Shown here piece by piece: positions 23,459-59,011 of a stretch of DNA of 64,000 nt (the first letter of the stretch is position 1; every line of letters begins with the position of its first letter). Origin of the DNA: an uncultured Sedimenticola sp. (GTDB taxonomy: Bacteria > Pseudomonadota > Gammaproteobacteria > Chromatiales > Chromatiaceae). The position numbers were made by a program, and so were the translations under genes. A model generated the notes under the pieces. It did no database searches. It had not been told where the DNA came from and was given only the letters and a program-made list of their open reading frames with translations. Location: the NCBI GenBank assembly GCA_964394235.1, contig CAYMWJ010000003.1, positions 10,896 through 74,895 on the forward strand, read 5' to 3'.

Positions 23459-25444
23459 TCAGCGTGCCAGGCGGCTGTCGCTGTTGCCCTCGATCACCTT
23501 GGGTCGCACCTTGCCCTGCTCGTTGGGGATGATGGGGTTGTTCAGGGCCTGGCGCACGTTCTGCAGGGAGCTGAGCTGGATCAGCCGCTGCCGGGCCTCG
23601 CGCTCCATCAGCAGAATACGTTGCTGAATGGTCTTGCGCGACTGGCTGGCGTGCTTGAGGTCGCGAATCTGCTGGGAGATGGCACCACGATACTCCTTGA
23701 CCTCGACGGTGAGCGGATCGAGGGCATGCTCCAGCCATTCGCAGGCCTCGCGATGGGCCTCGCGGAAGATATGGCGGGCGCGGTCGACGATGGTACGGAA
23801 GTAACGTTTCACCACGAAGTGCTGCTCGGTCATGGCGGTGCGTGGGCTCTTGCGGAAGACCTCGGACTCCTGGTGCAGTATGTCCAGGTCCACCTGGTGA
23901 CGGACGATGGAGAGCATGGCCGGCTGCAATGGCGGGAAATCGTGGTCGGTCTGGAAGCGTCGATAGATGCCGCGGATCAGGCGGCGCATGGCGGCGGCGT
24001 GTTGGCCGGCTGTCTCCATGCGGGCGTTGATGTCGTCGAACAGGATTCGCATGGCTTCCTTGAGGCCAGGTGTGGTCCAGGCCTTGGACATCTCCAGGCG
24101 CGCCGCTTCGATGACCTGGTCCAGTGAGTGCGGGTCCAGTGCCTCGAGCAGGAGGTGCCCGTGTTCCTGGAATTCGCGGCGGCTCTCGTGATAGGCCTCC
24201 ATGCTGGCCTGATAGCGTTTCTTGTCGCGCCGGGTTTCGCGCAGCAGGTGCGCGACCGCACTGTCGCTGCGGTTGGCCACCTCGTGCAGATTGTGGATCT
24301 GTTTCTGTGTGCGTTTGCGGCGTGATTCGATGATGTTCTCCAGCGACTCGATGGCATGCAGCACCTCACCGGTGAAGTCGTGCATGATGAGATCGCGCCG
24401 GTTCTCCACCACGCTGGTCGAGAGGTAGTCCTCCAGCCGCTGGATGCCGCTGCGCCGCTCGAGTTGGTGATCCTCGCGGATACGTGCCAGCAATGCCTTC
24501 TGGGCCGACACGGCGAAGGTCTGCTCGATGCGGATGTTCAGCAGCTTGGCCACCTCGGCGCGTTGCTGGAGGACCTGCTCCTCGATGTACTCCTGTGGTC
24601 GCAGCTCGTCCCACAGGATGTCGACCTTGTTGAGCACCGCCATCACGCCCTGTCGCAGTTTGCCCGTGGGGTTGATGCACTGTTGCCAGATGTCGAGGTC
24701 GGAGCGGGTCACGCCGGTGTCGGCGGACAGCACCAGCAGCACGGCCTGGGCATTGGGCAGGATCTCGTAGGTGAGTTCCGGCTCGTTGCCCACGGCATTG
24801 AGGCCGGGGGTATCGATCACCCGCAGTCCCTTGGCCAGCAGGGGGTGGCGGATGTTGAGCTGTGCGAGCCGCCAGCGCGGGATGGCCACCGTATCGTCGC
24901 CGTCGTCGGCAGACTGGTTCTCGATCGCCTCGGACAGGCCCAGCTCGGCGGCCTGGGCGCGAGGAACCCGCTTGGTGGCGGTCAGTGCCTCGAGTCGTTC
25001 TTGCAGGTCGTCCGGATCGTCGAGTTGCAGTGGCAGCGTGGTCCAGAGTTCCGGTTTCTGGCGCAGCTGGAACAGGCTGATATCGTGGCCGCGGGTCTCG
25101 ATGGGCAGCAGACGCAGGCAGGGGGCGGTCTCGTCATCTTGCAGGATCTCGGTCGGGCACATGGTGGTGCGCCCGGCGTCGGTGGGCAGCAGACGATAGC
25201 CGAGGTTGCCGAAGAACAGGGCGTTGATCAGCTCGGTCTTGCCGCGCGAGAACTCGCCGGTGATGGCCACCGTGATGTCGTCGCTGCGTAGTGCGGCACG
25301 TGCCCGTCCGATGGCGTGACGGATCTCGGAACCGTAGAGATCCTGCTGCTGCAGCCAGGGTTCGAGCTGGTCGAGGATCTTGCGCTGTCGTTGTTTCCAG
25401 CGGGCGAACCCGGCCAGTTGTTTTTCCAGCAGCGAAGTTGCCAT
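23459..25444 (-). CDS. Bacterial dynamin-like GTPase
   Basis: G1 GEFSRGKT, G2 PT.AGRTT, G3 IDTPG, G4 NKVD; long helical C-terminal stalk. Confidence 0.87.
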   Translation of the reverse strand: MATSLLEKQLAGFARWKQRQRKILDQLEPWLQQQDLYGSEIRHAIGRARAALRSDDITVAITGEFSRGKTELINALFFGNLGYRLLPTDAGRTTMCPTEILQDDETAPCLRLLPIETRGHDISLFQLRQKPELWTTLPLQLDDPDDLQERLEALTATKRVPRAQAAELGLSEAIENQSADDGDDTVAIPRWRLAQLNIRHPLLAKGLRVIDTPGLNAVGNEPELTYEILPNAQAVLLVLSADTGVTRSDLDIWQQCINPTGKLRQGVMAVLNKVDILWDELRPQEYIEEQVLQQRAEVAKLLNIRIEQTFAVSAQKALLARIREDHQLERRSGIQRLEDYLSTSVVENRRDLIMHDFTGEVLHAIESLENIIESRRKRTQKQIHNLHEVANRSDSAVAHLLRETRRDKKRYQASMEAYHESRREFQEHGHLLLEALDPHSLDQVIEAARLEMSKAWTTPGLKEAMRILFDDINARMETAGQHAAAMRRLIRGIYRRFQTDHDFPPLQPAMLSIVRHQVDLDILHQESEVFRKSPRTAMTEQHFVVKRYFRTIVDRARHIFREAHREACEWLEHALDPLTVEVKEYRGAISQQIRDLKHASQSRKTIQQRILLMEREARQRLIQLSSLQNVRQALNNPIIPNEQGKVRPKVIEGNSDSRLAR

Positions 25445-25522
25445 GCCCCTTGTCCTCCCGGATGTGGGCCGGGTCTGCGCCCGGACATTCCCTTTTTTAA
25501 GCTTGTTCCTCAATTCTAGGCG

Positions 25523-31436: not shown

Positions 31437-31677
31437 GTGTGAAAGTCAACACCACAGAGCACACAGAGATCACAGAGGGGGTGAAGTTGGGGGCTGTCCC
31501 AGCGAGATTGTAACCCTCGGTCGACGGACCGATGGTCCATCAGCAGGAAGGTCCGCGCTTCGCCTTTTGCCATCGTCAAGCTCTGTGCGCTCTGTGTTCT
31601 CTGTGGTGAATGAAAAACAAGGGGGTCAGCGCATTTTCCACAATCCAGGGTGTGGGATATCTGTCCTCATGAGAGTT
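31437..31677 (+). repeat. Full copy of the CACAGAG/CTCTGTG-periodic hairpin repeat element
   Basis: CACAGAG x3 left arm, CTCTGTG x3 right arm, shared core and CATGAGAGTT tail. Confidence 0.88.
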
Positions 31678-31734
31678 AGTGCCGGCTTTGCTAAGCTGGA
31701 GGCTATTCTCCATCCCGGCCCAGGAGCCTTCCGG

Positions 31735-34527
31735 ATGCAGCGTCTGCTGATGCTCTGTGCCAGGTATCCGTGGCATGCCCTCGGGTTCCTGCTGCTGGTC
31801 TCACTCGCGGCCGCCACCCAGTTGCAGCACGTGCAGGTGCAGATCGCCACCGACGAGTTGCTGGTGATGGATGACCCCGAGCGCGCCTATTACGAGCGTA
31901 TCAGCCGCCAGTTCGGGGAAGAGAACATCGTGGTGCTCTATCTCGAGGACGCGGCGCTGATGGCGCCGGAACGCCTCGAGGTCCTGCGCCAGACCCTCGA
32001 GCAGATCGCGCAGCTGGATTTCGTCGACCGCGTGGAGAGCCTGTTCTCCGTGCCCTGGCTCAAGAGCGTCGATGGCTACCTGAACAAGGATCCCTACCTG
32101 AAGCAGCTGCCGAAGGATGCCGCCGAGGGTGAGCGCCTGCTCGCTCAGGCACTCCAGGATCCCTTCGTGCGTCACGTGCTGTTGTCGGTCGATGGGCGGG
32201 TGATGGGGGCGGCCATCGTGCTGCGCGACGATGTGAGCGGGGAGGACGACCTGCGGGTGACGCACGCACTCGAACGCCTGGTCGCGCCCTTGCGTGCGCA
32301 CTATCAGCGGGCCTTCGTGATCGGCTATCCGCACGTGCGCACGGCCATCGCCCAGCAGATCCGCCAGGAGCAGGCCGAGCTGTTCCCCTGGGCGGTGGGG
32401 GCCCTGTTGCTCGCGCTGTTCCTGCTGTTGCGTCAGCTGGTCGATATCCTCGCGCCGGTGCTCACCGCGGCGATCAGCATCGTCTGGACCCTGGGTCTGA
32501 TGGGACTGAGCGGCATCCCGTTGAACGTGGTCACCTCCATCGTGCCCATTCTGTTGATCATCGTCGGTTCGACCGAGGACATCCATCTGTTGTCGGAGTT
32601 TCGCCACGCCCAGCGCGCAGGCCTGGGCCGCGAGGCGGCGCTCGAGCGCATGGCCACGCGCATGGGGCGCACGGTACTGTTGACCTTCGTCACCACCTAT
32701 GCCGGCTTCTTCTCGGTGGCGCTGAGCCGCATCGAGGTGTTGTGGCAGTTCGGCGTCCTCGCCTCGACGGGTCTGCTGTTCAACTTCGTGGCCACCGTGG
32801 TGCTCATTCCGGCCCTGCTGTCGCTGGCCGGCCATTGGCAGCTCGATGGGCGCTCACGTTTCGTGCGGCAGCGTCCGGGACGCCTGGCACGACGTTACTG
32901 GGAGCTGCTCCATCGCGTGCGCTGGGGCATCCTCGTGGTGTTGCTCGGGATCTCGCTGATCGCGGCCCTCGGGGTGCCCCGGATCGAGGTCAATCACAGC
33001 ACCATCGACAGCCTGGCCCGTGATTCCGAGGTGCGGCGCCAGGTGGAGGCGGTCAACCAGCATCTGGCCGGGCTGGAGGACTTCTCCATCGTGCTCGAAT
33101 CGGGTATCGAGGACACCTTTCTCAAGGTGCGCTATCTCGAGCAGGTGGCCGCCATCCAGGCGTTCATCGAGCAACAGGGCCTGGCCCGTTCCACCACTTC
33201 GTTCACCGATTACCTGTCGATGCTCAACATGGCCTTCCAGGAGCTGGACAGGCCGTCGCTCCCCGGTTCGGACGACGTGGTCGATGAACTGATGATCTTT
33301 CTCGATCATCGCCATGTGCAGGCCTATGTATCGGACGACTACAGTCGATTGCGCATCCTCGTTCGCCACTCGGTCGACTCCACGGTGGCCTTGCAGGCCT
33401 TTGTCGACCGTGTGCAGGCCTATCTGGACGAGCATCTCGATGCCGGCCTCGAGGCGCACATCACCGGTTCCTCGGTGCTGACCCTGCGGGCCACCGAGTC
33501 GATGATCCGCGGTCAGCTGGAGTCGGTGCTGCTCCTGCTGCTGTGCTTCGTGCTCATCATCTCGGTGCTGTTCACCGATCTCCGTGTGGGTCTGATCGCC
33601 GCCCTGCCCAACGCGCTGCCGGTGCTGGTGCTGTTCGGTGTCATGGGCTACGCGGGTATCCCGCTGAACATCGGTACTGCCATGGCCGCAGCCATCGCCA
33701 TCGGGATCGCCGTGGACGACACCCTGCACTTCATGTTGCGCTACAACCGCGAACTGCGGTCCTCGCATCAGCAGGTCGCCGCCATGCAGGCGACCCTGGC
33801 CGGTGAGGGGCTGCCGGTGATTGCCACCTCGGTGGCCTTGATCGCGGGTTTTCTGGTCTTCACCCTCTCGGATTTCCAGCCCATCGTGCTGTTCGGGGCG
33901 CTCAGCGCCCTGGTCATCGCCACCGCGCTGCTGGCGGATTTCGTGATCACCCCCCTGGCCATCTCTTCGCTGCGCCTGGTCAACCTATGGGACCTGTTGT
34001 CGGCCCAGTTGCGGCGTGAGGTCATTCCGCAGAGTGTGCTGTTCCGAGGCATGCGGCCCTGGCAGATCCGTCGTTTCATCCTCGCCAGCACCCTGGGAGA
34101 GTACCGGCCGGGCGAGGTGATCTTCGAGCCGGGAGACGAATCGGACGCCATGTTCCTGGTGATGCGCGGTGCGGTGGAGGTGGTGGTGCCCGGCAGCCGT
34201 GGCGAAAGGGGTGATCTGGTGGTCAGTCGCTTCGGTGTGGGCGAGCTGTTCGGCGACGTGGCGGTGCTGGCCCGTAAACGCCGCAAGACGCGAGCGCGAG
34301 CGCTCGAACCGACGACCTTGCTGCTGCTGGGGCGCGACAGCCTCTACAATGCCGTGCAATACCACCCCTTGCTGGCGAGTCGCCTGTTCTACAATCTGGC
34401 GGTCGACGTGAGCTGTCGCTGGATCCGTTTCATTGGCACTATCCAGTCGCCCGCGGATTCGCGGGTCCGTGGGGCAGGCAAGGGAGCCGAGGACGGCCAC
34501 TGCGGGCGGAGCGTTGAGGAGTCGTGA
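31735..34527 (+). CDS. MMPL/RND family transporter with C-terminal cyclic-nucleotide-binding domain
   Basis: Two MMPL halves (GSTEDIHLL; IGIAVDDTLH..LRY) then YRPGEVIFEPGD...MFLV.RGAVEV...GELFGD...RARA. Confidence 0.88.
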   Translation: MQRLLMLCARYPWHALGFLLLVSLAAATQLQHVQVQIATDELLVMDDPERAYYERISRQFGEENIVVLYLEDAALMAPERLEVLRQTLEQIAQLDFVDRVESLFSVPWLKSVDGYLNKDPYLKQLPKDAAEGERLLAQALQDPFVRHVLLSVDGRVMGAAIVLRDDVSGEDDLRVTHALERLVAPLRAHYQRAFVIGYPHVRTAIAQQIRQEQAELFPWAVGALLLALFLLLRQLVDILAPVLTAAISIVWTLGLMGLSGIPLNVVTSIVPILLIIVGSTEDIHLLSEFRHAQRAGLGREAALERMATRMGRTVLLTFVTTYAGFFSVALSRIEVLWQFGVLASTGLLFNFVATVVLIPALLSLAGHWQLDGRSRFVRQRPGRLARRYWELLHRVRWGILVVLLGISLIAALGVPRIEVNHSTIDSLARDSEVRRQVEAVNQHLAGLEDFSIVLESGIEDTFLKVRYLEQVAAIQAFIEQQGLARSTTSFTDYLSMLNMAFQELDRPSLPGSDDVVDELMIFLDHRHVQAYVSDDYSRLRILVRHSVDSTVALQAFVDRVQAYLDEHLDAGLEAHITGSSVLTLRATESMIRGQLESVLLLLLCFVLIISVLFTDLRVGLIAALPNALPVLVLFGVMGYAGIPLNIGTAMAAAIAIGIAVDDTLHFMLRYNRELRSSHQQVAAMQATLAGEGLPVIATSVALIAGFLVFTLSDFQPIVLFGALSALVIATALLADFVITPLAISSLRLVNLWDLLSAQLRREVIPQSVLFRGMRPWQIRRFILASTLGEYRPGEVIFEPGDESDAMFLVMRGAVEVVVPGSRGERGDLVVSRFGVGELFGDVAVLARKRRKTRARALEPTTLLLLGRDSLYNAVQYHPLLASRLFYNLAVDVSCRWIRFIGTIQSPADSRVRGAGKGAEDGHCGRSVEES

Positions 34528-35325: not shown

Positions 35326-36042
35326 ATGTGGGTACTTGCTGTCAGTGTTTTGGCCTACCTGTTCGGCCTGGGGGTGCTGGTGCTCTTCGTGCTGTTTGTC
35401 GCTCCCTGGCCGCTGCTGCCGTGGCACGTGGATTCCGGAGGGGCCGGGTTGCCGGTCTGGCTGGCAGTCGGCATCGACATCGGCCTGCTGGCACTGTTCG
35501 GTCTGCAACATTCCGTGATGGCGAGGCCCCGTTTCCGGCGCCTGCTGCCGCCCGCGCTCACGCGTGCCGTCTATGTGTTGGCCTCGGGGATGGCGCTGGG
35601 GCTGTTGATCGCTTGCTGGCAGCCGTTGCCCGGCGAGCCGTGGCAGGTCGAACAGCCGTTCGCGCGCGGCTTGTTGCTGGCGGGGTTCGTTGGCGGCTGG
35701 GCGCTGTCGGTCTACGCCACCTTCGTCATCGACCACTTCGAGCTGTTCGGCTTGCGTCAGGCCTGGCGATACTTGCGGAGGGAGGCCGCGCCGGCGCCCG
35801 CCTTTCGCGAGGTGTCACTCTACCGCTGGGTGCGTCATCCCATGCAGCTCGGCGTGTTGATCGGCCTGTGGGCCACGCCGCAGATGTCGAGCGGCCACCT
35901 GCTGCTGGCGCTGGGCATGACCGCCTATGTGCTGCTCGGCCTGTGGTTCGAGGAGCGCGACCTGCTGGTCGAGCTGGGCCCGGCCTATGCCGAGTACCGC
36001 CAGCGGGTGCCGCGGCTGATTCCCCTGCGTCGGCCGCGCTGA
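35326..36042 (+). CDS. mddA: Methanethiol S-methyltransferase-like membrane methyltransferase (MddA/ICMT-PEMT family)
   Basis: LFGLQHSVMARP, FVIDHFELFGLRQ, LYRWVRHP, WATP.M..GHLL, EERDL. Confidence 0.75.
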   Translation: MWVLAVSVLAYLFGLGVLVLFVLFVAPWPLLPWHVDSGGAGLPVWLAVGIDIGLLALFGLQHSVMARPRFRRLLPPALTRAVYVLASGMALGLLIACWQPLPGEPWQVEQPFARGLLLAGFVGGWALSVYATFVIDHFELFGLRQAWRYLRREAAPAPAFREVSLYRWVRHPMQLGVLIGLWATPQMSSGHLLLALGMTAYVLLGLWFEERDLLVELGPAYAEYRQRVPRLIPLRRPR

Positions 36043-36160
36043 TGTCGAGCTCGGCCGATGCGCGCAGGTGGCGTGATCGCGGGCAGCGTGTCCCGGGCGC
36101 GGACACAAGAAACCCCGCCACGGGGGCGGGGCGGGTTTGCCAACCCAGCTTGGGTCTCGA

Positions 36161-37132
36161 TCAATCGTTCAGCGGCTTGAGCTTGAGTTCGCTGTCGGTA
36201 GCCTTCAGGAAGCCGTATTTCGCGTAGATGGCCTGGGCCGCGGGGGTGCCGAGGTAGGCGAGATAGCGTTCAGCATTGTGCGGATTGCGCCCGGTGGCCA
36301 GGGTGCCGATGGCATAGCCCACCTTGTGCTGCATGTTGTAGGGCGCGGGGATGGGCACGCCTTCGATCGGGCGTCCCTGGGCCTGGGCATGTTTCACCTC
36401 GGTGGTCCAGACGATGCCTACGTCGGCCTCGCCCTTCTCGATCCGGTAGGGCGTCTCACGGTGATGACGCGAGGTGAACCAGGTCTTGCCGGGCACGGCC
36501 CAGCAGCTCTTGCATTTGGCACCACCGGTGACCTTGTCGTACAGACCCAGGTCCTTGAGCATCTGTGCGCCGTAGAACTTGAAGATGCCCTCGGTCAGCG
36601 GGTTGGGGTGGGACTGCACCAGGTCGTCGCGGCCCAGATCCTCCGGTCCCTTGATGCCCTTGGGGTTGCCCTTGGCGACCATCAGTTCGAGCTTGTTGTG
36701 GGTGTAGATCATGTAGTCGTGCATGAGCCCCTTCTTTGCCAGCTTCTTCAGGTGGCCCAGGTTCACGCTGGCGAACAGGTCGGGATTCTGTGCGGTCTTC
36801 CGGCCATCGATGACCCCCTGCTTGAGGATCTGGCCCTTGAGGATCTGACCCGGCGGGATGGTCTCGACGTAGATGGTGCGGATGTCGGGGTTCTTCTTCT
36901 GGAAGTCGCGGATCAGCTCTTCCATCACCATGAACTGGTTGCCGGCGAGGTACATGACCAGGTCGGCGGTGTAGGAATCACCGATCTTGCCGTACGTGAT
37001 ATGGCCGTCGGCATGAAAGGTACGGTAGTCGTGACCGTGACCGGCGCTGTCCTTGCCCTGGGTCGCCATCGTGGGGGCGGTCAGGAGCAGCGTGGTGGCC
37101 GCGAGCAGTGCCAGCAGCTTGCGTGGTTTCAT
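36161..37132 (-). CDS. Periplasmic ModA-like (molybdate/sulfur-oxyanion) substrate-binding protein, orphan
   Basis: Signal peptide; LAGNQFMV, YVETIPPG, HHRETP, ADVGIVW.TE; no permease or ATPase nearby. Confidence 0.8.
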   Translation of the reverse strand: MKPRKLLALLAATTLLLTAPTMATQGKDSAGHGHDYRTFHADGHITYGKIGDSYTADLVMYLAGNQFMVMEELIRDFQKKNPDIRTIYVETIPPGQILKGQILKQGVIDGRKTAQNPDLFASVNLGHLKKLAKKGLMHDYMIYTHNKLELMVAKGNPKGIKGPEDLGRDDLVQSHPNPLTEGIFKFYGAQMLKDLGLYDKVTGGAKCKSCWAVPGKTWFTSRHHRETPYRIEKGEADVGIVWTTEVKHAQAQGRPIEGVPIPAPYNMQHKVGYAIGTLATGRNPHNAERYLAYLGTPAAQAIYAKYGFLKATDSELKLKPLND

Positions 37133-37255
37133 GATGTCCTCCTTTGGGGGTCGTTGTTGGCGTCTCCATCCTGGAGCGGATGCTGTATCTCGCCAATACG
37201 ATCGACTACGGGATGGCCCCTGGGGGAAACCCGAGGTTGTCTTTCAAGTTGTTGA

Positions 37256-39097
37256 TCAGGAAGGGAAATCGGATGGGTCTTCGGTGTCGAGCAGTCCGGC
37301 CTGCATGGCCAGGCGGGTGAGCGCGGCAGCGTTGCCGAGCTCGAGCTTGCGCATCAGGTTGGAGCGATGCAGCTCGACGGTCTTGACGCTGATCCCCAGT
37401 TCGCGGGCGATCTGCTTGTTGGCCAGGCCACGGCTCACTGCGATCAGCACCTCGCGTTCGCGCGGGGTGAGCCCTGCCAGACGGTGGGCGGCCAGTGCAC
37501 GACGCTGTTCGCGCAGGCGGTTCTGTTCCTCGTAGGCCAGCCACTGCGCCACCAGTTGCAGGATGCGCATCCCCAGTGTGTTGTGACGCCCCAGCTTGTG
37601 CGCGGCTTGCTGCTCGGCGAGCAGTTCCAGCACGCACAGGGCCTTGCCCTGCTGCACTACTGGGCAGGCCAGGTAGCGCATCGTCGTGTCCTCCCGCGCA
37701 AACTCGCGTTCGAGCGGCGCGCGTTCGGCCACGGCGCGTGCAGCCGCCTCGGCATCGAGGACAGCGGGTGGGCTGTCGGGCGGGCTGGCCGCGCAGTATT
37801 CGGGGCGCCCCTTACGTACCCGGTGGAGCAGCAGGTGCCGGGTGCCGAAGTAGGCGGCCAGGTGATCGAGGATGGATTGCAGGCGCTGTTCCGGGCTCAG
37901 GTCGTCGCGCACGATCAGGGTGTGGATGCTGTGCAGGCAGTCGCAGCCGTCGTGCAGGGCCTCTTCCTGACGGATGCGCGTGGCGATGTCGTCCTGCAGC
38001 GTGCGATTCGCTGCGAGCAGGGCCTCGGTGCGTTGCTCGACCAATTGTTCCAGCTCGTCCCGGTGTCGCTCGAGTGCCTGTTGCGAGCGTTGCAGTTCGC
38101 GGTTGATGCGCAGGATGTAGAGGCTGCTGCCCAGCCCCAGCAGCAGTGCCGTGAGCAGGCTGCCGAGCAGGGTGGCGTGGCTGTGCCACAGTTCGGCCAG
38201 GGAAAGAGGGCGTGGCGTGTAGGGAGGGGCCTGCAAGGTGCGCAGTACCTCGTGTACGCCGTTGTAGTCCAGCGGGATGGTCCAGCCGGCGATGCTTGCC
38301 GCGCGTGCCACCGGGCCGTCGGCGGGCATCTGCAGCAGTTGCAGGGTCACCTGGCGGGCCAGTGCCTCGTCGGTGCGCGGCAACCTCGCCAGCGGCCACT
38401 CGGGGTACAGCGAGGTGCTCAGGCGCAGGGGAAAGCCGGGCGCATGTCGGGGCAGCAGGATGCGCAATGCCTTCGGGTCCAGGCGCCCGGCAGTGATCAG
38501 GCCTTCGATCACGCCGGTGCGTACCGTGCCGGCATCCGCCCGGCCCTCGAGTACCGCCTGCACGATCTCGTGTTGTGGAAATCCCAGCCACAGGGGGTGC
38601 ATCTCGTGCAGTGGGTCGATGCCGGTCTCGCGCAGCGCGTGGCGTGCCAGCAGGAAGCCGCCAAAGGCCTCGGGACTGACGGCCGCCAGGCGCTGTCCCC
38701 GCAGATCCTCAGGGGTGTGAATGCCGCTGTCGGCACGGGTGAAGATCACGGCCCCGAAACGGGTGAGCGCGCGTCCAGCATGCCGGTTGCGCAGGGTGAG
38801 GATACGGGTGACACCGAAACTCACCTCGAGTTGCACATAGTGCGCCGGGTTGGTGAGCACGAAATCCAGCTGGTCCTTGCGGATGCGGTTGCGGAAGCCT
38901 TCGTGGGTGAGCGGCAGTACGCGGAAGGTGTAGCCGGGTATGCGGGCGCTGAGGTAGCCAGCCAGCGGCTGCCAGCGCGCCAGCGCGCGCTCCTCGCCGT
39001 CGAAGGCGAGCACCCCGATGTGCACCGTGCGGGGCGGCTCGCCGAAGGCGATGCCCCAGCACAGCAGCGAGACCAACAGACAGAGGCGGTATCCCAT
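37256..39097 (-). CDS. Transmembrane one-component regulator: PhnD/TtrS-like periplasmic domain, TM, coiled coil, GAF-like domain, LuxR HTH
   Basis: IGVLA...W.PLAGYL, DFVLTNP, FGAVIF, SFGGF-like AFGGF, DAGTVRTG, YPEWP; C-terminal LTPREREVL...NKQIARELGISVKTVELHRSNLMRKL. Confidence 0.85.
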   Translation of the reverse strand: MGYRLCLLVSLLCWGIAFGEPPRTVHIGVLAFDGEERALARWQPLAGYLSARIPGYTFRVLPLTHEGFRNRIRKDQLDFVLTNPAHYVQLEVSFGVTRILTLRNRHAGRALTRFGAVIFTRADSGIHTPEDLRGQRLAAVSPEAFGGFLLARHALRETGIDPLHEMHPLWLGFPQHEIVQAVLEGRADAGTVRTGVIEGLITAGRLDPKALRILLPRHAPGFPLRLSTSLYPEWPLARLPRTDEALARQVTLQLLQMPADGPVARAASIAGWTIPLDYNGVHEVLRTLQAPPYTPRPLSLAELWHSHATLLGSLLTALLLGLGSSLYILRINRELQRSQQALERHRDELEQLVEQRTEALLAANRTLQDDIATRIRQEEALHDGCDCLHSIHTLIVRDDLSPEQRLQSILDHLAAYFGTRHLLLHRVRKGRPEYCAASPPDSPPAVLDAEAAARAVAERAPLEREFAREDTTMRYLACPVVQQGKALCVLELLAEQQAAHKLGRHNTLGMRILQLVAQWLAYEEQNRLREQRRALAAHRLAGLTPREREVLIAVSRGLANKQIARELGISVKTVELHRSNLMRKLELGNAAALTRLAMQAGLLDTEDPSDFPS

Positions 39098-39176
39098 GTG
39101 CTGGAGATGCGCTGTGCGCCGCTTTATTCCCCGGGCTCAGGTCACGAGTTGCCGCGTCCCGGGTCGCTGCGGGCCA

Positions 39177-39554
39177 TCACGGGGATGCCTGTTTGCAGGC
39201 GGGCAGGCAGGCGAGGCGGATCCTTTCCTTCAGGTCGTCGAGGTCTTGGCAATCGCGCAGGGAGCGGGCGTTCAGGCATTGCTGGATCTCGCCTTCGCCT
39301 TCCACGAACACGGCGGGTAGTTCGGTGCGCACTTGCGGGTATTCACGCCGGAACTCGTCACGGTGCAGGAAGCGGGTCTCCACCGGCAGGGCTGTGATGA
39401 AATCGCGCCAGGCCTCGCGTTCGCGCAGTACGCCATGGGTAAGCATGCACAGGTCGCAGTGGTAGGTCTGCGGCGAGAACAGTTTGTGGCCGATGTCGGC
39501 CAGGGTGTTGAACAGGCCCGAGTCGGCGTTGTAGACGAACAGCAGACGCGGCAT
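39177..39554 (-). CDS. Conserved hypothetical protein with a CxxC motif (thioredoxin-like?)
   Basis: LLFVYNADSG...HKLFSPQTYHCDLCMLTHG...FLHRDEF conserved-family pattern. Confidence 0.7.
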   Translation of the reverse strand: MPRLLFVYNADSGLFNTLADIGHKLFSPQTYHCDLCMLTHGVLREREAWRDFITALPVETRFLHRDEFRREYPQVRTELPAVFVEGEGEIQQCLNARSLRDCQDLDDLKERIRLACLPACKQASP

Positions 39555-39590
39555 ACGAGGCTCCGGTGTGTCAGACTGGCGGCCGGGCGG

Positions 39591-39618
39591 CTTGAATTCC
39601 GTCCGTCGGCCCCGATGT
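39591..39618 (+). promoter_or_regulatory. Sigma32 (RpoH) promoter for cbpA-cbpM-htpX
   Basis: CTTGAAT-N13-CCCGATGT vs consensus CTTGAAA-N13/14-CCCCATNT. Confidence 0.7.
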
Positions 39619-39732
39619 TGGGGCTGTTGAGGGATCTCTGAACCCAATGCTGTAGTTGCCTTCCCGGCAAGCGGGGGGCTGGGTCGGAGGTTCCCTGGGT
39701 CAACCCTAGCAGATCAGGCAAGCCGTTATTCG

Positions 39733-40695
39733 ATGGAATTCAAGGACTACTACGAAATCATGGGCGTCTCGCGCGACGCCACGCAGGACGAGATCAAGCG
39801 CGCCTACCGCAAGCTGGCGCGCAAGTATCATCCCGACGTGAGCAAGGAGCCGGACGCCGAGCAGCGCTTCAAGGAGATCGGTGAGGCCTACGAGGTGCTC
39901 AAGGATCCCGAGAAGCGCGCCGCCTACGACCAGCTCGGTGCCAACTGGCAGGCCGGGCAGGACTTCCGTCCGCCGCCGGACTGGGACCAGGGCTTCGAGT
40001 TCCATGGCGGCGGCTTTACCGGTGCCGATGCCGAGCAGTTCAGCGACTTCTTCGAGAGCCTGTTCGGTCGCGCGCGCGGCGGCAGCCGTCATGCCTGGTC
40101 GACGGCAGGTGGTGGTGGCTTCGATCTGCGCGGCGAGGACACCTATGCCAAGGTGCTGATCGATCTCGAGGACGCCTACCAGGGGGCGATCCGGACGCTG
40201 ACCCTCAAGCACACCGAGCTGGGGCCGGATGGCCGGCCGCGGCTGCGCGAGCGCACGCTCAATGTGCGCATTCCCAAAGGGGTGAAGGAAGGGCAGCACA
40301 TTCGCCTGGCGCGCCAGGGCAGTCCCGGCGTCGGCAAGGGCGAACCGGGGGATCTCTATCTCGAAGTGGCGTTCCGCCCGCATCCCTTCTATCGTGTAGA
40401 GGGCAAGGATGTCTATATCGAGCTGCCGGTGGCGCCCTGGGAGGCTGCGCTGGGCGCCAAGGTCAAGGTGCCCACGCCGGCCGGCGCAGTGGACCTGAAG
40501 ATCCCCGCCGGCTCCAGGGCCGGGCGCAAGCTGCGTCTGAAGGGACGTGGGATCCCGGCGAAGCAGCCAGGCGATTTCTACGTCGAACTGCAGATCGCCC
40601 TGCCGCCGGCCGATGATGCGGAGGCGCGTACCGACTATGAGCGATTCAGGGAAGCCTTTCCGGGCTTCGCCCCGCGGGCGCATCTGGGAGTGTGA
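39733..40695 (+). CDS. cbpA: DnaJ-class chaperone CbpA
   Basis: J-domain with HPD, no zinc finger, DnaJ_C (GDLYL, PVAPWEAALG). Confidence 0.92.
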   Translation: MEFKDYYEIMGVSRDATQDEIKRAYRKLARKYHPDVSKEPDAEQRFKEIGEAYEVLKDPEKRAAYDQLGANWQAGQDFRPPPDWDQGFEFHGGGFTGADAEQFSDFFESLFGRARGGSRHAWSTAGGGGFDLRGEDTYAKVLIDLEDAYQGAIRTLTLKHTELGPDGRPRLRERTLNVRIPKGVKEGQHIRLARQGSPGVGKGEPGDLYLEVAFRPHPFYRVEGKDVYIELPVAPWEAALGAKVKVPTPAGAVDLKIPAGSRAGRKLRLKGRGIPAKQPGDFYVELQIALPPADDAEARTDYERFREAFPGFAPRAHLGV

Positions 40696-49945: not shown

Positions 49946-50133
49946 GATTATCTAAACTACTGTTCTGTATTTGAAAACGCAATGATCCGGTGCTATAAAG
50001 CGGATGATCTCACAGAGCCCACATACCGATAAGGGGTATCCGGGCGGTGAGATCGGGGGCAGGGACCGTGCCGCATGGCCCCTTCCCGTGTAGATCGAAA
50101 TCATTTGCCACGACCTCATCAAAGGGGAGAGTC

Positions 50134-52566
50134 ATGAACAGGAAAGCGATAGCGCTCGCGGTTCTGGGCGCCGTGTTTGTTGCCGGCTGTGCGCCGCAGC
50201 AGACGGCCAAGGCGCCAGACTCCGGCGCCACGGCGGGTACCGCCACCGCCGACGTCACCAAACCAAAGAATGATTACAACATCACGGTGAACTACGAGCT
50301 GGGCATGCACTGCACCGGCTTCGACTTCACCTACTGCTGTGTGCTGCCGCCGTACAACTCGGTGCAGTCCCAGGTCATCAAGACCGCCGATGGCCCCAAG
50401 GCCTATCCCGAGTTGCTCGAAGCCGACGAAAAGGACCACACGGTTCTGGTCGATGGCAAGAAGCGCTTCAAGCTGGCCTATGGCCACATCGACAATACCT
50501 ATTCCGAAGGTGCCAAGCTGGCCTACTGGAACGTGCCCTACGATGTGGATGGCGATGGCAAGTGGGAGAAGAACGAGAACGTGGCCAACGCCTACTTCAC
50601 CCACCTGTACGTCTACAAGGACCTGAAGGGTTCCAACCCCAAGGGCACCAGCAAGGACAGTGAAAAGCTGTTCGTGGGTATCCAGATCCCAGTCCCGCAG
50701 GACAATGGCCCGGCCGGCGCCGCGGTGCCCAGTCCGATGAAGGGAGGGCACCTGCACTACACCGGCGAGAAGGGCACTATCGTGTTCACCAAGTCGCCGG
50801 TGCTGGACAATGTGCCCATCGTGCTGACCAACCCGGGTATCTGGGATGCGTTGGGACTGCCGCTGACCCCGTTCACCGACACGGTGGCAGCCAAGAACCC
50901 GCTGACCCTGGTCGAGTCCGACATCCAGCCTTACCAGATGGCCCAGGTCACCCTGGTGGATGCGGACACCGGCAAGCCGGTCATCGACTCGCACTCCGGC
51001 AAGCCCGTGAGCTTCGTGGGTACCAGCCCGATCGACATCCCCAACTGCGCCAACTGTCACGCCAACGAGACGGCCAATGGTGACAAGTACACCCTGTACA
51101 AGCAGGAGAAGGCCTTCTGGAAGGGCCTGGGGGCGTCGGACTGGATCGCCAATCTGAAGGCGACCTCCATCTCCATCATGGAGATCCACGACGACAAGAA
51201 CGGTACCGACTTCCTGAAGAACTACAGGCCGAACAGCCGCGACATCAGCAACCGTCTTGGTCGTGACCCGGTGCTGTGCCAGAAGTGTCACGCGGACAAC
51301 GTGATCGGCGTGCTCCAGTCCAAGACCCACAAGGAGGATGGCAAGGAGAAGCTTATTCCCCCGCTGACTCAGGCAATTCATACGGTGCACCAGATGAAGG
51401 CGCCGCTGCCCGACTCGCAGGGCCGTACCGCTGCCTGCCAGGGTTGCCACCCGGCGCACCGCCAGGACGGCAGCATGGAAGGCTACCCGATCACCCCGGA
51501 TGGCAAGAACGCCTACGCGGACGCGGACAACCGTGATGCTGCGGGCGGCTGCTACGTGGGGCGTGACGTGCACTCCAACCCCGGCAAGGATCGTGACGGT
51601 GTAGGCACCAGGGAATACCTCAACGCCATCGGCCAGTGGCTGCAGGACAACGTCTCGCAGATCGGAAACGGTCAGGGCGGCAAGGGTCTGTGGTGCACCA
51701 ACTGTCACAACCAGCTGAGCCGTGAACTGTACCAGCGTGACAATCTGCAGAATGCCTTCCTGCAGACCGGCACCACGCTGCGCAACAAGTCGCTGGAGGA
51801 GATCGCAGCCGGCATCGGTGTCTCCATGGACCAGCTCAAGGCCATGATGGACCCGAAGGTGGTGCTCAACGAGAAAGGTGAGGACACGCCCGGCAAGTCC
51901 GAGATCCTGCACACCTGGGCCAAGGATCGCCTGGTCCCGGATATCGCGGTGATCGCACTGAAGGGTGATGCTCCGCTGGTGCACAAGGACGAAGACGGCG
52001 ACATCAACGTGGTGCCCCTGTCGGCCAACCCGGCGGTGGACATCGCCTCGCTGAAGCTGCCGGAAGGGGCTACCGGTGCCGCCGCGGTGCCGTATGACGC
52101 TGCCACGCATGGTCGTGACTACTGGCTGTCGCCAGGTGCGCCGCACTGTGCCGACTGTCACGCTGCGCCCTTCGTCGAGGGTCAAGGTGGGGTGGCCTTC
52201 CCCATCAACCAGCCGGGCAAGTACAGCCTGATGCGCTACACCAAGGGTCATGCTGGCATCGCCTGTCAGGGCTGCCACGAGTCGATCCACGGCCTGTACC
52301 CGGTGACGCCTGAGGTGGACAAGACCACCTATGCACAGGCCGCCATGTACAACCCCGATGGTTCGCACGGTCCGCTCAAGTGTGCTTCCTGCCACGAGAC
52401 CAACTCGGACGGTGTGCCGCTGATTGCCAAGCACCAACCGGACGAGGAAGAAGTGGCCGACCGCCACGAGTGGAAGGGCAAGCCCATCGAGCATGACTTC
52501 GAGGCTGCCGTGCAGTGGATGCACGCTTATGCCCCCGACCTTGGAGGCAAGATCCCAGAGGAGTGA
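50134..52566 (+). CDS. Uncharacterised heptaheme cytochrome c lipoprotein (810 aa)
   Basis: Lipobox VAG-C; seven CxxCH motifs (CANCH, CQKCH, CQGCH, CTNCH, CADCH, CQGCH, CASCH); extra Cys in GMHC...YCC and GGCYVGRDVH. Confidence 0.9.
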   Translation: MNRKAIALAVLGAVFVAGCAPQQTAKAPDSGATAGTATADVTKPKNDYNITVNYELGMHCTGFDFTYCCVLPPYNSVQSQVIKTADGPKAYPELLEADEKDHTVLVDGKKRFKLAYGHIDNTYSEGAKLAYWNVPYDVDGDGKWEKNENVANAYFTHLYVYKDLKGSNPKGTSKDSEKLFVGIQIPVPQDNGPAGAAVPSPMKGGHLHYTGEKGTIVFTKSPVLDNVPIVLTNPGIWDALGLPLTPFTDTVAAKNPLTLVESDIQPYQMAQVTLVDADTGKPVIDSHSGKPVSFVGTSPIDIPNCANCHANETANGDKYTLYKQEKAFWKGLGASDWIANLKATSISIMEIHDDKNGTDFLKNYRPNSRDISNRLGRDPVLCQKCHADNVIGVLQSKTHKEDGKEKLIPPLTQAIHTVHQMKAPLPDSQGRTAACQGCHPAHRQDGSMEGYPITPDGKNAYADADNRDAAGGCYVGRDVHSNPGKDRDGVGTREYLNAIGQWLQDNVSQIGNGQGGKGLWCTNCHNQLSRELYQRDNLQNAFLQTGTTLRNKSLEEIAAGIGVSMDQLKAMMDPKVVLNEKGEDTPGKSEILHTWAKDRLVPDIAVIALKGDAPLVHKDEDGDINVVPLSANPAVDIASLKLPEGATGAAAVPYDAATHGRDYWLSPGAPHCADCHAAPFVEGQGGVAFPINQPGKYSLMRYTKGHAGIACQGCHESIHGLYPVTPEVDKTTYAQAAMYNPDGSHGPLKCASCHETNSDGVPLIAKHQPDEEEVADRHEWKGKPIEHDFEAAVQWMHAYAPDLGGKIPEE

Positions 52567-56520: not shown

Positions 56521-57053
56521 CGCTTGTCCTCGAACCAGCGCGCGAACTTCTCGCGCCAGGCGGCCTCGTTCAGCGCCCCCTTGTGCTTGGCGCGAATGAT
56601 GCCGTCGGCGTCGATCAGGAAGGTCTCGGGCGCGCCATATACGCCCCAGTCGATGGCGGCGGTGCTGTCGGGGTCGAAGGCGACGGCCACGAAGGGGTTG
56701 CCGTTCTCGCGCAGCATGGCCTGGCCATCGGCGAGCTCGTCACGCCAGTCCACGCCGACGATGGGAATGCCGCGCGCCTTCAATTGCAGCAGGTAGGGGT
56801 GCTCGCGCCAGCACTCGGGACACCAGGTGCCCCAGAAGTTGAGCAGCCAGGGCTTGCCCTTGTACGCCGAGGGGCGCACCTGCTGCTGCGGGTCGAACAG
56901 CTCGGGCAGGGCGAACTCGGGTGCGGCACGGCCGATGAATTCGGTGGGGATGTCGCGCGGATTGTATTCGCCTTCGCCCATCTGCTGCAGGACGTAGAAG
57001 AACAGCCCGGCCAGTACCACGAAGATGCCGAGGGGAATGATCGCCTTGTTCAT
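56517..57053 (-). CDS. ccmG: Thiol:disulfide interchange protein DsbE/CcmG
   Basis: LLNFWGTWCPEC; GVYGAPETFLID. Confidence 0.93.
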   Translation of the reverse strand: MNKAIIPLGIFVVLAGLFFYVLQQMGEGEYNPRDIPTEFIGRAAPEFALPELFDPQQQVRPSAYKGKPWLLNFWGTWCPECWREHPYLLQLKARGIPIVGVDWRDELADGQAMLRENGNPFVAVAFDPDSTAAIDWGVYGAPETFLIDADGIIRAKHKGALNEAAWREKFARWFEDKR

Positions 57054-59011
57054 GCGCGGGCCTCCGCGGCGTTGCCGGCGGTGCTGCGACGCTGCGCCAG
57101 CACCCGGTAACGACGGTCTGCGGCGGCCAGCAGGCCGCCCAGGGCCATGATCAGTGCGCCCAGCCAGAGCCAGCGCACGAAGGGCTTGTGATAGATGCGC
57201 AGACTCCAGGCCTGTTTGCCCAGGTCTTCGCCCAGGGCGACGTAGAGGTCGCGGAACAGGCCGGCGTCGATGGCCGCCTCGGTCATCGGCATCTTCTGTA
57301 CCAGGTAGGTGCGCTTCTGCGGGTGCAGCTCGGCGATGGTCTCGCCTTGCTGGCGCACGCTGATCGAACCTTCATAGGCGGTGTAGTTGGGCCCTTCGAC
57401 GCTGGTCACGCCATTGAACTCGAAGGTGTAGTCGCCGATCTGATAGGTCTCACCGGGCGCCAGGCGAATGTCCTTTTCGGTGGAGTAGGTGGTGGTCATG
57501 GCGATGCCGATGACGAACACCCCGATGCCCAGGTGACCGAGGATCATGCCCCAGAAACCCAGCGGCACGTGACGCAGCTTGGCGTGTGGGCTCAGGCGTT
57601 CGCGCAGCGCGGCCAGGGTGGCGGCGAGCACCCAGATCCCCAGGGTCAGACCGAGCACGGCCATGGGGCTGACGAAGGGCACGGCAAGCAGGCCCCAGGC
57701 CAGGCCGAGCACCAGCGCGGCGATGGCGGGGATGCGCAGCTTCTGCCACAGGCGGGCCGGTTCGTCACGCTTCCAGCGCGCCATGCTGCCGATGCCGATC
57801 AGCACGACCAGCGGCAGGGCGAGGATCATGAAGACGGTGTCGAAATAGGGGCGTCCCACCGAGATCTTGCCCAGTTGCAGGGCATCCGAGATCAGGGGGT
57901 ACAAGGTGCCCAGCAGCACGGCCACGGCCGAGACCAGCAGGATCACGTTATTGAGCAGCAGGAAGGTCTCGCGCGAGAGCATTTCGAAGCGCACGCTGCT
58001 CTTGATCTCGTTGGCGCGCATGGCATACAGCGCCAGCGAGGAGCCGACCACGGTGAACAGGAAGGCGAGGATGAAGATGCCGCGTTCCGGGTCGGAGGCG
58101 AAGGCATGCACCGAAGTGAGCACGCCGGAGCGCACCAGGAAGGTACCCAGCAGGCTGAGCGAGAAGGAGAAGATCGCCAGCAGCACGGTCCAGGCCTTGA
58201 AGGCACCGCGTTTTTCGGTGACCGCCAGCGAGTGCATCAGGGCGGTACCGACCAGCCAGGGCATGAAGGAGGCGTTCTCCACCGGGTCCCAGAACCACCA
58301 GCCGCCCCAGCCCAGTTCATAGTAGGCCCACCAGCTGCCCAGGGTGATGCCCAGGGTGAGGAACAGCCAGGCCACGTTGGTCCAGGGGCGCGACCAGCGC
58401 GCCCAGGCGGCATCCAGCCGGCCGCCGAGCATGGCCGCCACGGCGAAGGCGAAGGGAATGGCGAAGCCGACATAGCCCATGTAGAGCATGGGCGGGTGGA
58501 ACACCAGTCCCGGGTCCTGCAGCAGTGGGTTGAGGTCACGGCCTTCCGGGGCGGGGGGCATCAGGCGATCGAAGGGGTTGGAGGTAAGGATCATGAACAG
58601 CAGGAAGCCCACGCTTACCAGGCCGAGCACGCCGAGCACGCGGGCGATCACCACCTCGGGCACGCTGCGGCTGAAGAAGGTGACCGCAGTGGTCCAGATG
58701 CCCAGGATCAGCGCCCACAGCAGCAGCGAGCCTTCGTGCGCGCCCCAGACCGCGGAGATCAGATAGGGCGTGGGCAGCCGGGTGTTGGAGTTCTGTGCCA
58801 CGTACAGCACCGAGAAATCGTGTTGCAGGAAGCTCCAGGTGAGCAGGCCGAAGGCGATGGCCAGTACCAGTGCCTGGATGCGGGCCGCCGGGCGTGCCAG
58901 GGCGATCCAGCTGCTGATGCCGCGTTGCGCGCCGACCAGCGGAAACACGCCCTGTACCACGGAGAGGGCCAGGGCCAGGGCCAGCATCAGTTGTCCGAGT
59001 TCGGGGATCAT
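57050..59011 (-). CDS. ccmF: Heme lyase CcmF
   Basis: WGAHEGSLLLW, HPPMLYMGY, WAYYELGWGGWWFWDPVENAS, SVHAFA. Confidence 0.97.
   Translation of the reverse strand: MIPELGQLMLALALALSVVQGVFPLVGAQRGISSWIALARPAARIQALVLAIAFGLLTWSFLQHDFSVLYVAQNSNTRLPTPYLISAVWGAHEGSLLLWALILGIWTTAVTFFSRSVPEVVIARVLGVLGLVSVGFLLFMILTSNPFDRLMPPAPEGRDLNPLLQDPGLVFHPPMLYMGYVGFAIPFAFAVAAMLGGRLDAAWARWSRPWTNVAWLFLTLGITLGSWWAYYELGWGGWWFWDPVENASFMPWLVGTALMHSLAVTEKRGAFKAWTVLLAIFSFSLSLLGTFLVRSGVLTSVHAFASDPERGIFILAFLFTVVGSSLALYAMRANEIKSSVRFEMLSRETFLLLNNVILLVSAVAVLLGTLYPLISDALQLGKISVGRPYFDTVFMILALPLVVLIGIGSMARWKRDEPARLWQKLRIPAIAALVLGLAWGLLAVPFVSPMAVLGLTLGIWVLAATLAALRERLSPHAKLRHVPLGFWGMILGHLGIGVFVIGIAMTTTYSTEKDIRLAPGETYQIGDYTFEFNGVTSVEGPNYTAYEGSISVRQQGETIAELHPQKRTYLVQKMPMTEAAIDAGLFRDLYVALGEDLGKQAWSLRIYHKPFVRWLWLGALIMALGGLLAAADRRYRVLAQRRSTAGNAAEARA

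Follow-up and report, generated by a model that had tools for sequence, protein, structure and literature searches.

The 64,000-nucleotide (nt) stretch of DNA analysed here (the window; part of contig CAYMWJ010000003.1 of an uncultured Sedimenticola sp., from a hydrothermal-vent metagenome) encodes a 613-amino acid (aa) protein in which a PhnD-like periplasmic sensor domain is joined through a transmembrane (TM) helix, a coiled coil and a GAF-like domain to a C-terminal LuxR/FixJ-type helix-turn-helix (HTH). Its open reading frame (ORF) lies on the minus strand, from an ATG start codon to a stop codon at 37256-37258 (Table 1). This protein, hereafter the regulator, carries a DNA-binding domain and a TM segment on one polypeptide without any phosphotransfer domain, and it falls within the transmembrane one-component class. 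The explanation that best accounts for the whole of the data is that the regulator derives from a TtrS/TtrR-type system and directly activates the neighbouring gene for a solute-binding protein (SBP), a reading that we consider probable on the basis of comparative sequence analysis.

Domain architecture of the regulator

The sensor domain of the regulator was recognised by the Pfam family Phosphonate-bd (PF12974) at aa 27-273 with an E value of 1.5e-41, and its nearest structures in Foldseek searches are PtxB, ArrX, HtxB and AioX (TMt 0.7-0.82). At the opposite end of the protein, GerE (PF00196) matches aa 543-597 (E 3.7e-19), and FixJ, EL222 and NarL are the sequence matches of the HTH in the PDB. 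An A-F-G motif precedes E20 in the sequence, and signal-peptide cleavage may take place after it. The AlphaFold model, which was built with 45 homologs and reached a mean predicted local distance difference test (pLDDT) of 88.6 and a predicted template-modelling score (pTM) of 0.54, contains a periplasmic binding protein (PBP) fold at residues 23-290, a continuous helix at 300-396, an alpha/beta domain at 402-540 and the HTH at 545-599.

The alpha/beta domain was assigned as GAF-like through its relatives. The direct match to GAF (PF01590) at aa 402-521 is sub-threshold in Pfam (E 0.057; 14.4 bits against a cut-off of 22.4). However, aa 402-530 of the regulator are colinear with the GAF/GAF_3-scoring region of a related kinase (P0089), and the domain also aligns colinearly with the Pfam-significant GAF of a second kinase (P0091); the assignment is made because of this transitive homology with Pfam-significant kinase GAF domains. 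At the end of the preceding coiled coil, Cys385 (about 37943-37945) lies in a G-C-(E/D)-x-L motif. This cysteine is near-invariant among the fused regulators, whereas the kinase relatives examined lack it.

No match to HisKA, HATPase_c or Response_reg (PF00072) was detected in the regulator by Pfam, even at an E value of 0.1. In NCBIfam, the TtrS model (NF040750) matched only at its positions 8-331 of 555, corresponding to the sensor, TM helix and linker, whereas TtrR (NF040749) and FixJ (NF006900) matched only at positions 122-185 and 111-201, respectively. The regulator scored 188.6 bits against the TtrS equivalog model, whose cut-off is 750, and the TtrS/TtrR comparison further gave 47.3 bits against an equivalog cut-off of 290. 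The assigned domains cover the 613 residues fully and therefore leave no space for a hidden kinase core; neither Pfam nor NCBIfam revealed a hidden kinase or receiver domain. A preliminary description of this DNA, made without database searches, had listed a signal peptide, a PhnD-like domain, one TM helix, a coiled coil, a GAF-like domain and a FixJ/TtrR-type HTH, with neither HisKA/HATPase motifs nor a receiver, and this composition was recovered by Pfam, NCBIfam and AlphaFold, with the GAF domain at the sub-threshold level given above.

Probable origin from a kinase/response regulator pair

The regulator can be aligned in two parts with the components of an intact two-component system. Residues 19-575 are colinear with kinase P0089 (36% identity), whose GAF domain (434-564) falls on aa about 402-530 of the regulator. 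At locus L084, in which a TtrS-like kinase and a response regulator are adjacent, aa 5-527 of the regulator align with the kinase and the alignment stops at 527, while the counterpart of aa 512-602, at 46% identity, is the segment 110-200 of the response regulator. The two alignments overlap by ~15 residues around W519, where the last GAF helix meets the receiver end and the interdomain linker of the response regulator. By this comparison, the regulator corresponds to the kinase from residue 1 to about 560 and to the response regulator from about residue 115 to its end, joined at about residue 520. Absent from it are the dimerisation and histidine phosphotransfer (DHp) and catalytic ATPase (CA) core, of about 235 aa, and the receiver, of about 110 aa. 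An in-frame loss of about 350 codons over the boundary between the kinase and regulator genes would produce such a protein.

An alternative origin, in which the sensor was fused to a pre-existing soluble GAF-LuxR regulator, was rejected by a search with aa 380-613. Among 1.84 billion cluster representatives there was no soluble GAF-LuxR relative, and the only full-span matches were 600-630-aa members of the same family or fragments; there is therefore no soluble ancestor for a fusion.

The sensor domains of fused regulators and kinases were compared in a neighbour-joining tree, midpoint-rooted and without support values. The 73 long forms and five GAF-less forms of the Thiolinea type make up one clade, and the remaining four short forms branch within the kinases. 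Because the short forms fall at separate places in this tree, the kinase/regulator pair may have collapsed independently at least twice, a tentative suggestion. The GAF domain is dispensable, since Thiolinea-type members exist without it. Taken as a whole, the alignments indicate descent from a TtrS/TtrR-type two-component system, the regulator itself not being a TtrS ortholog. The earlier proposal of a collapsed TtrS/TtrR system is supported by the colinearity with a kinase and its adjacent response regulator, and by the presence of the same SBP gene and the same predicted operator beside both architectures.

Distribution of the family and purifying selection

Homologs were searched for among 5.8 billion proteins. 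At least 73 full-length clusters share the architecture of the regulator (567-672 aa, 37-98% identity), and nine shorter one-component clusters were found besides them. The same search also yields ~800-aa kinases with PF12974, GAF, HisKA and HATPase. The carriers include Chromatiaceae, Sedimenticola, Halothiobacillus, Cocleimonas and Thiolinea, the cultured Thiomicrorhabdus arctica DSM 13458 and T. sp. Milos-T2, and the alphaproteobacterium Albidovulum. They are marine Gamma- and Alphaproteobacteria, almost all of them sulfur oxidisers. The architecture recurs in complete genomes, and the closest genome (CP037918, Chromatiaceae) encodes a protein 92% identical to the regulator.

The fusion junction itself is covered by a single unitig at ~299x (37368-39034) and by a variant-strain contig of another run (36891-37965). 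Comparison with two orthologs gave ratios of nonsynonymous to synonymous substitution rates (dN/dS) of 0.11-0.32 across all four domains, lowest in the HTH and the sensor (0.13-0.18 for the latter), with the GAF-like region least constrained. The regulator family is conserved and under purifying selection. One relative within the clade, P0019, at first seemed aberrant at 813 aa and could have pointed to an assembly chimera or to a decaying, functionless remnant of a two-component system; as a genuine 813-aa variant it was rejected, being a frameshift read-through into the SBP gene. With at least 73 clusters and complete genomes sharing the architecture, contigs from several runs spanning the junction and purifying selection on all domains, we assign a negligible probability to a chimera or remnant. 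An assembly or deletion chimera, which the preliminary description had named beside a hidden kinase domain as refuting its reading, was rejected in view of the abundant full-length homologs, the cultured carriers and the independent junction-spanning contigs.

Contigs of two DNA runs include a minor form in which 437 nt (38291 to 38729) of the region coding for the sensor domain are skipped. The skip is out of frame, has 28-nt anchors and reaches a depth of 18 of about 300 (~6%) in X1; this form probably reflects an artefact of the assembly graph or a rare variant with a deletion.

The downstream SBP gene and its predicted operator

The gene downstream of the regulator encodes an SBP_bac_11 protein (Pfam), in agreement with the earlier view that the neighbour is an SBP. 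The same orphan SBP_bac_11 gene is present in 29 of the 35 loci with a long fused regulator, ~100-300 bp downstream and on the same strand, and an orthologous SBP (66-96% identity) also adjoins intact kinase/regulator pairs in either gene order. More than 120 SBP clusters were found at 73-100% identity; the Albidovulum SBP is ~90% identical to that of the window, whereas the Albidovulum regulator is only 50% identical. The motifs C207-x-x-C210-W and R222-H-H-R-E-T-P are invariant and lie in a loop that ModA lacks. Annotation pipelines name the SBP a molybdate ABC transporter protein despite its score of 53.1 bits against ModA TIGR01256, which is below the equivalog cut-off of 62.5 and covers the C-terminal lobe only. 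Its family matches are confined to ModA and the sulfate/thiosulfate binders, a profile search of the PDB returned only weak ModA/Sbp matches, and the nearest fold is that of ModA/WtpA (4kd5, TMt 0.84). A recurrent ABC permease, ATPase or modBC neighbour of the SBP gene was not found in the loci examined. No terminator-like hairpin was found between the regulator and SBP genes; one follows the SBP gene (Table 1).

A 16-bp palindrome with the consensus CTNGGGT-N2-ACCCNAG is predicted to be the operator. In the window, its centre is located 95 nt 5' of the SBP ATG. Allowing for up to two mismatches, 31 of the 43 regions upstream of SBP genes contain the palindrome (0.35 expected from shuffles), and it precedes the SBP gene in loci with a fused regulator as well as in those with a kinase/regulator pair. 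Sites with at most one mismatch number only two in the 64-kb window (0.24 expected), and both flank the regulator locus. Through comparative genomics, this conserved palindrome upstream of the SBP start supports the direct control of the SBP gene put forward in the preliminary description. At a fixed spacing after the palindrome there is a second conserved element, of the form CCGTAATC-N5-TATTG in one-component loci and GGGTA-N-CAGTTAT in two-component loci, which may represent the -35/-10 region or a second binding site.

The geometry of the palindrome is that of characterised operators of related systems. The ThsR operator TATGTGGTTTACCACAAT has been defined by mutation (PMC5408782), and the ttrR box GTGG-N4-CCAC, just upstream of the -35 sequence, has been verified by electrophoretic mobility shift assay (PMC11293645); the palindrome described here has the same layout and differs in one base per half-site.

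Metatranscriptome contigs of a relative (identity bands of 95-99%, 90-95% and <90%) span both the regulator and the SBP genes with a flat depth, and they are uninformative on the transcription start site. A scan of positions 36000-39800 for the sigma-70 consensus gave no promoter-like site. Activator-dependent promoters usually lack a detectable sigma-70 consensus.

The second near-consensus palindrome of the window is situated between a conserved 125-aa ORF and the divergent cbpA gene. Among the relatives, only the closest genome (L004) retains this palindrome and L001 has half of it, and as a possible autoregulatory site it is a weak lead. The 125-aa ORF, which gave no Pfam or NCBIfam match, separates cbpA from the regulator in the seven closest loci; the L001 copy is itself set apart from the regulator by an inserted PNPOx-like gene and an insertion sequence (IS) element (rve).

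Table 1. Coordinates of the features of the regulator-SBP region (positions of the window)
Feature	Coordinates	Strand	Basis
Transmembrane one-component regulator gene (sensor-TM-coil-GAF-HTH)	37256..39097	-	ORF, domains, at least 73 full-length homolog clusters, dN/dS ~0.19
N-terminal signal peptide or TM1, aa 1-19, MGYRLCLLVSLLCWGIAFG	39041..39097	-	Hydrophobic helix 2-16 in the model
Periplasmic PhnD-like (class II PBP) sensor domain, aa 23-295	38213..39031	-	PF12974, TtrS model, Foldseek
TM helix, aa about 303-327, hydrophobic stretch ATLLGSLLTALLLGLGSSLYIL	38117..38191	-	Within continuous helix 300-396
Cytoplasmic coiled coil/signalling helix, aa 328-396	37910..38116	-	Model helix; colinear with the helix that follows the TM segment in TtrS-like kinases
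GAF-like alpha/beta domain, aa 397-520	37538..37909	-	Sub-threshold Pfam; colinear with P0089 GAF; model fold
Fusion junction and linker, aa 521-540	37478..37537	-	Homologous to interdomain linker of FixJ/TtrR-type regulators
C-terminal LuxR/FixJ HTH	37292..37477	-	PF00196 E 3.7e-19; dN/dS 0.11-0.15
Predicted operator palindrome CTCGGGTTTCCCCCAG, consensus CTNGGGT-N2-ACCCNAG	37220..37235	.	Comparative genomics
Second conserved promoter-proximal element CCCGTAGTCGATCGTATTGG	37193..37212	-	Fixed spacing after palindrome
Putative target gene: orphan periplasmic ModA-like SBP, 323 aa	36161..37132	-	PF13531 E 5e-37
Terminator-like hairpin closing the regulator-SBP unit	36112..36132	-	Follows SBP gene
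Conserved 125-aa ORF with H-C-D-L-C	39177..39554	-	Just upstream of regulator, 7 loci
Second near-consensus palindrome CTAGGGTTGACCCAGG (- strand)	39694..39709	.	147 nt upstream of 125-aa ORF

Candidate signal and regulon in relatives

In relatives of the window, the palindrome or a CTAGTA variant precedes genes for SoxB-like proteins, secreted DsrE-like proteins, a larger SBP_bac_11 and a YeiH-like exporter. At locus L026 (5983-9397), a fused regulator 40% identical to that of the window lies upstream of a soxY gene set, in which the operator is followed by soxY (TIGR04488, 144.7 bits against a cut-off of 125), then a soxZ-like and then a secreted dsrE-like gene. The operator variant of this locus, CCTAGTATTTTTACTAGG, is also present upstream of the SBP gene in L017. 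Characterised kinases with a PhnD-like sensor detect tetrathionate or thiosulfate (PMC5408782). A sulfur-compound signal is favoured because the operator precedes soxYZ, SoxB-like and DsrE-like genes elsewhere, and the sulfur-oxidising lifestyle of almost all hosts points the same way. The ligand is most likely an inorganic sulfur compound in a reduced or partly oxidised state, for example thiosulfate or a polythionate. A ttrBCA/molybdopterin oxidoreductase operon was not found near the regulator, either in the window or in loci L001-L003. The sulfur oxyanion of the preliminary description is plausible from the soxYZ, SoxB-like and DsrE-like regulon, whereas the regulator is not a TtrS ortholog and has moeA and moaE as neighbours in several loci.

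Intact kinase/regulator pairs in loci L037, L051, L058, L074 and L080 adjoin genes for ~730-aa SoxB-like metallophosphoesterases with the same operator. These proteins match TIGR04486 with an E value of 3.8e-42, below its cut-off, and some of the genes are followed by one for a 440-aa SBP_bac_11 variant.

Proposed mechanism

We propose that an anionic ligand would close the periplasmic Venus-flytrap domain of the regulator, and that this movement would be transmitted through the dimeric TM helix and the coiled coil, and then through the GAF-like module where present, re-positioning the C-terminal HTH domain of each subunit. Still anchored in the membrane, the dimer could then bind CTNGGGT-N2-ACCCNAG upstream of the SBP promoter and activate it. 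Regulation would proceed without phosphotransfer; no phosphorelay is expected because DHp, ATPase and receiver are all absent. The SBP, with its invariant CxxC and the HH of the family-specific loop, would be the output, taking part in the periplasmic handling of the sensed compound.

A broader scheme, to be held only tentatively and on balance doubtful, would have the phosphorelay replaced, at least twice and independently, by direct allosteric control of a LuxR-type HTH across the membrane, with the sensor responding to thiosulfate or polythionate in sulfur oxidisers, and with the CxxC SBP under its control and, together with SoxYZ, SoxB-like and DsrE-like proteins, part of a novel accessory branch of sulfur oxidation in the periplasm.

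Alternative explanations

Several observations weigh against direct activation of the SBP gene by a TtrS/TtrR-derived sulfur sensor. The direction of change, from two components to one, is tentative, as it was deduced from parsimony and from the unsupported, midpoint-rooted neighbour-joining tree. The inter-domain geometry of the full-length model is unreliable because of the pTM of 0.54. The centre of the palindrome could lie anywhere from about -42 to -65, and the palindrome may be a repressor site. The identity of the TtrS ligand is not transferable to the regulator, because the TtrS/TtrR scores are below cut-off and ttrBCA is missing nearby. Finally, the fold of the SBP is closest to molybdate/tungstate binders, and moeA, moaE, moaD and mog directly follow the SBP gene in L001, L004, L006 and L012, with moeA beside the module also in the more distant L027 and L032. 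The last two points would suit a regulator of the same mechanism whose signal is molybdate, tungstate or, in sulfidic water, thiomolybdate, within a module for molybdenum or tungsten acquisition; the SBP family matches point in the same direction, and thiometallates could be ligated by the SBP cysteines. However, the SBP scores below the ModA cut-off and through its C-terminal lobe only, modBC genes are absent, the operator precedes sulfur-handling soxYZ, SoxB-like and DsrE-like genes in relatives, and the characterised kinase relatives with a PhnD-like sensor respond to tetrathionate or thiosulfate. A metal oxyanion as the signal is unlikely, while deserving serious consideration.

The role of the SBP could also be that of the true ligand receptor, a co-sensor docking on a PhnD-like domain that acts as a platform and not as the binder. 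In the loci examined the SBP gene adjoins the sensor and not transporter genes, and the SBP is far better conserved (73-100% identity) than the regulator (34-98%), as would be expected under constrained protein-protein contacts; TorT/TorS, LuxP/LuxQ, AioX/AioS and CBP/ChiS provide precedents (reviewed in PMC8050422). Nevertheless, the SBP is at least a regulated output, because a separate operator belongs to its gene in every gene order. In several loci the fused regulator lacks an SBP gene in its vicinity and lies instead before DsrE-like or soxYZ genes, and the sensor domain keeps the invariant pocket-type motifs TNP, AFGG, WLGFP and GWT in common with the kinases, so that we judge a co-sensor distinctly unlikely. 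It is quite improbable that the periplasmic domain is a vestige or mere anchor and that the input is cytoplasmic, be it a small molecule in the GAF pocket or the redox state of Cys385: the conservation of this residue in the fused clade and its absence from the kinase relatives would fit, as would the ligand binding common among GAF domains, but the sensor domain is the strongly conserved part and the GAF-like region the least constrained, and GAF-less members of the same clade retain sensor, coil and HTH. Among membrane-tethered transcription factors generally, release by proteolysis is a known mode of action, and genes for FtsH and for an M48 protease are located a few kb from the regulator. 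Yet these neighbours are common only to the closest subclade, the module has no conserved association with a site-1 or site-2 protease, and the coiled coil, with its reach of ~10 nm, would allow the regulator to act directly from the membrane, as other transmembrane regulators do; regulated proteolysis freeing a soluble GAF-HTH fragment as the active regulator seems very improbable. Direct activation of the SBP gene by the intact, membrane-anchored regulator is the reading that we retain.

Other genes in the window

Upstream in coordinates, a dynamin-family (bacterial dynamin-like) protein of 684 aa is encoded on the minus strand (23459-25513), and a 986-aa MMPL/sterol-sensing-domain transporter fused to a C-terminal cyclic-nucleotide-binding domain on the plus strand (31567-34527); the latter is syntenic in L001. 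The plus strand also encodes, at 50047-52566, an 839-aa multihaem cytochrome with weak MtrC/MtrF-like and cytochrome c7 matches, near ccmF (57050-59011). A similar 849-aa cytochrome gene lies near the regulator-SBP module in L002.

Significance and comparison with known systems

The architecture of the regulator was undescribed in the literature searched, where it appears only as a bulk count in the supplementary tables of a 2023 survey of transmembrane regulators, in which 9.8% of these proteins carried GerE and 14 carried Phosphonate-bd (Demey et al. 2023, PMC10269533). The architecture, which the preliminary description considered unusual, thus belongs to a sizeable family that had already been counted. 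Intact and collapsed versions with the same sensor, operator and target can be compared side by side, and natural GAF-less and minimal versions already exist. It therefore becomes testable how a periplasmic Venus-flytrap signal can govern DNA binding in the absence of phosphorylation, and whether the coiled coil and the GAF domain are needed for this coupling. With a 16-bp predicted operator, the regulator is in addition a candidate one-gene, one-promoter transmembrane biosensor part for an inorganic anion. The family also draws attention to a near-invariant CxxC orphan SBP that is widespread in marine sulfur oxidisers.

Among transmembrane regulators, ToxR, CadC, TcpP and TfoS likewise combine a DNA-binding domain and an extracytoplasmic sensor in one membrane-anchored polypeptide without phosphotransfer. 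The classical members have the inverted topology, with an N-terminal winged helix and the DNA-binding domain first, whereas the HTH of the regulator is C-terminal, lies about 280 residues past the TM helix and demonstrably stems from a response regulator. Vibrio cholerae ChiS is a two-component-derived membrane sensor that controls transcription directly from the membrane and involves a periplasmic binding protein. Unlike the fused regulator, ChiS retains its kinase and receiver along with a separate DNA-binding domain, and its binding protein is a separate polypeptide. In EL222 (LOV-HTH) and other one-component regulators that pair a sensor with a LuxR domain, a LuxR/FixJ-type HTH is likewise under the allosteric control of an adjacent sensor module without a receiver, and residues 130-209 of EL222 match aa 523-602 of the regulator; EL222, however, is soluble and senses light, while control in the regulator must cross the membrane via the coiled coil. 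The AioX/AioS/AioR and ArrX/ArrS/ArrR systems also employ a PhnD-family protein for signalling and not for transport, but with a free binding protein and a sigma-54 activator output reached via a phosphorelay.

The closest counterparts are TtrS/TtrR and ThsS/ThsR of Salmonella, Shewanella and Vibrio parahaemolyticus, which have in common with the regulator the PhnD-like periplasmic sensor and the FixJ/LuxR-type HTH output. Their inverted repeats, GTGGT-TT-ACCAC and GTGG-N4-CCAC, compare with AGGGT-N2-ACCCT at the regulator locus. In contrast to these systems, the regulator lacks DHp, ATPase, receiver and phosphorelay, no tetrathionate or thiosulfate reductase operon is located nearby, and the putative target is an orphan SBP. 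The regulator is a TtrSR/ThsSR-like system minus the phosphorelay, and not a new principle.

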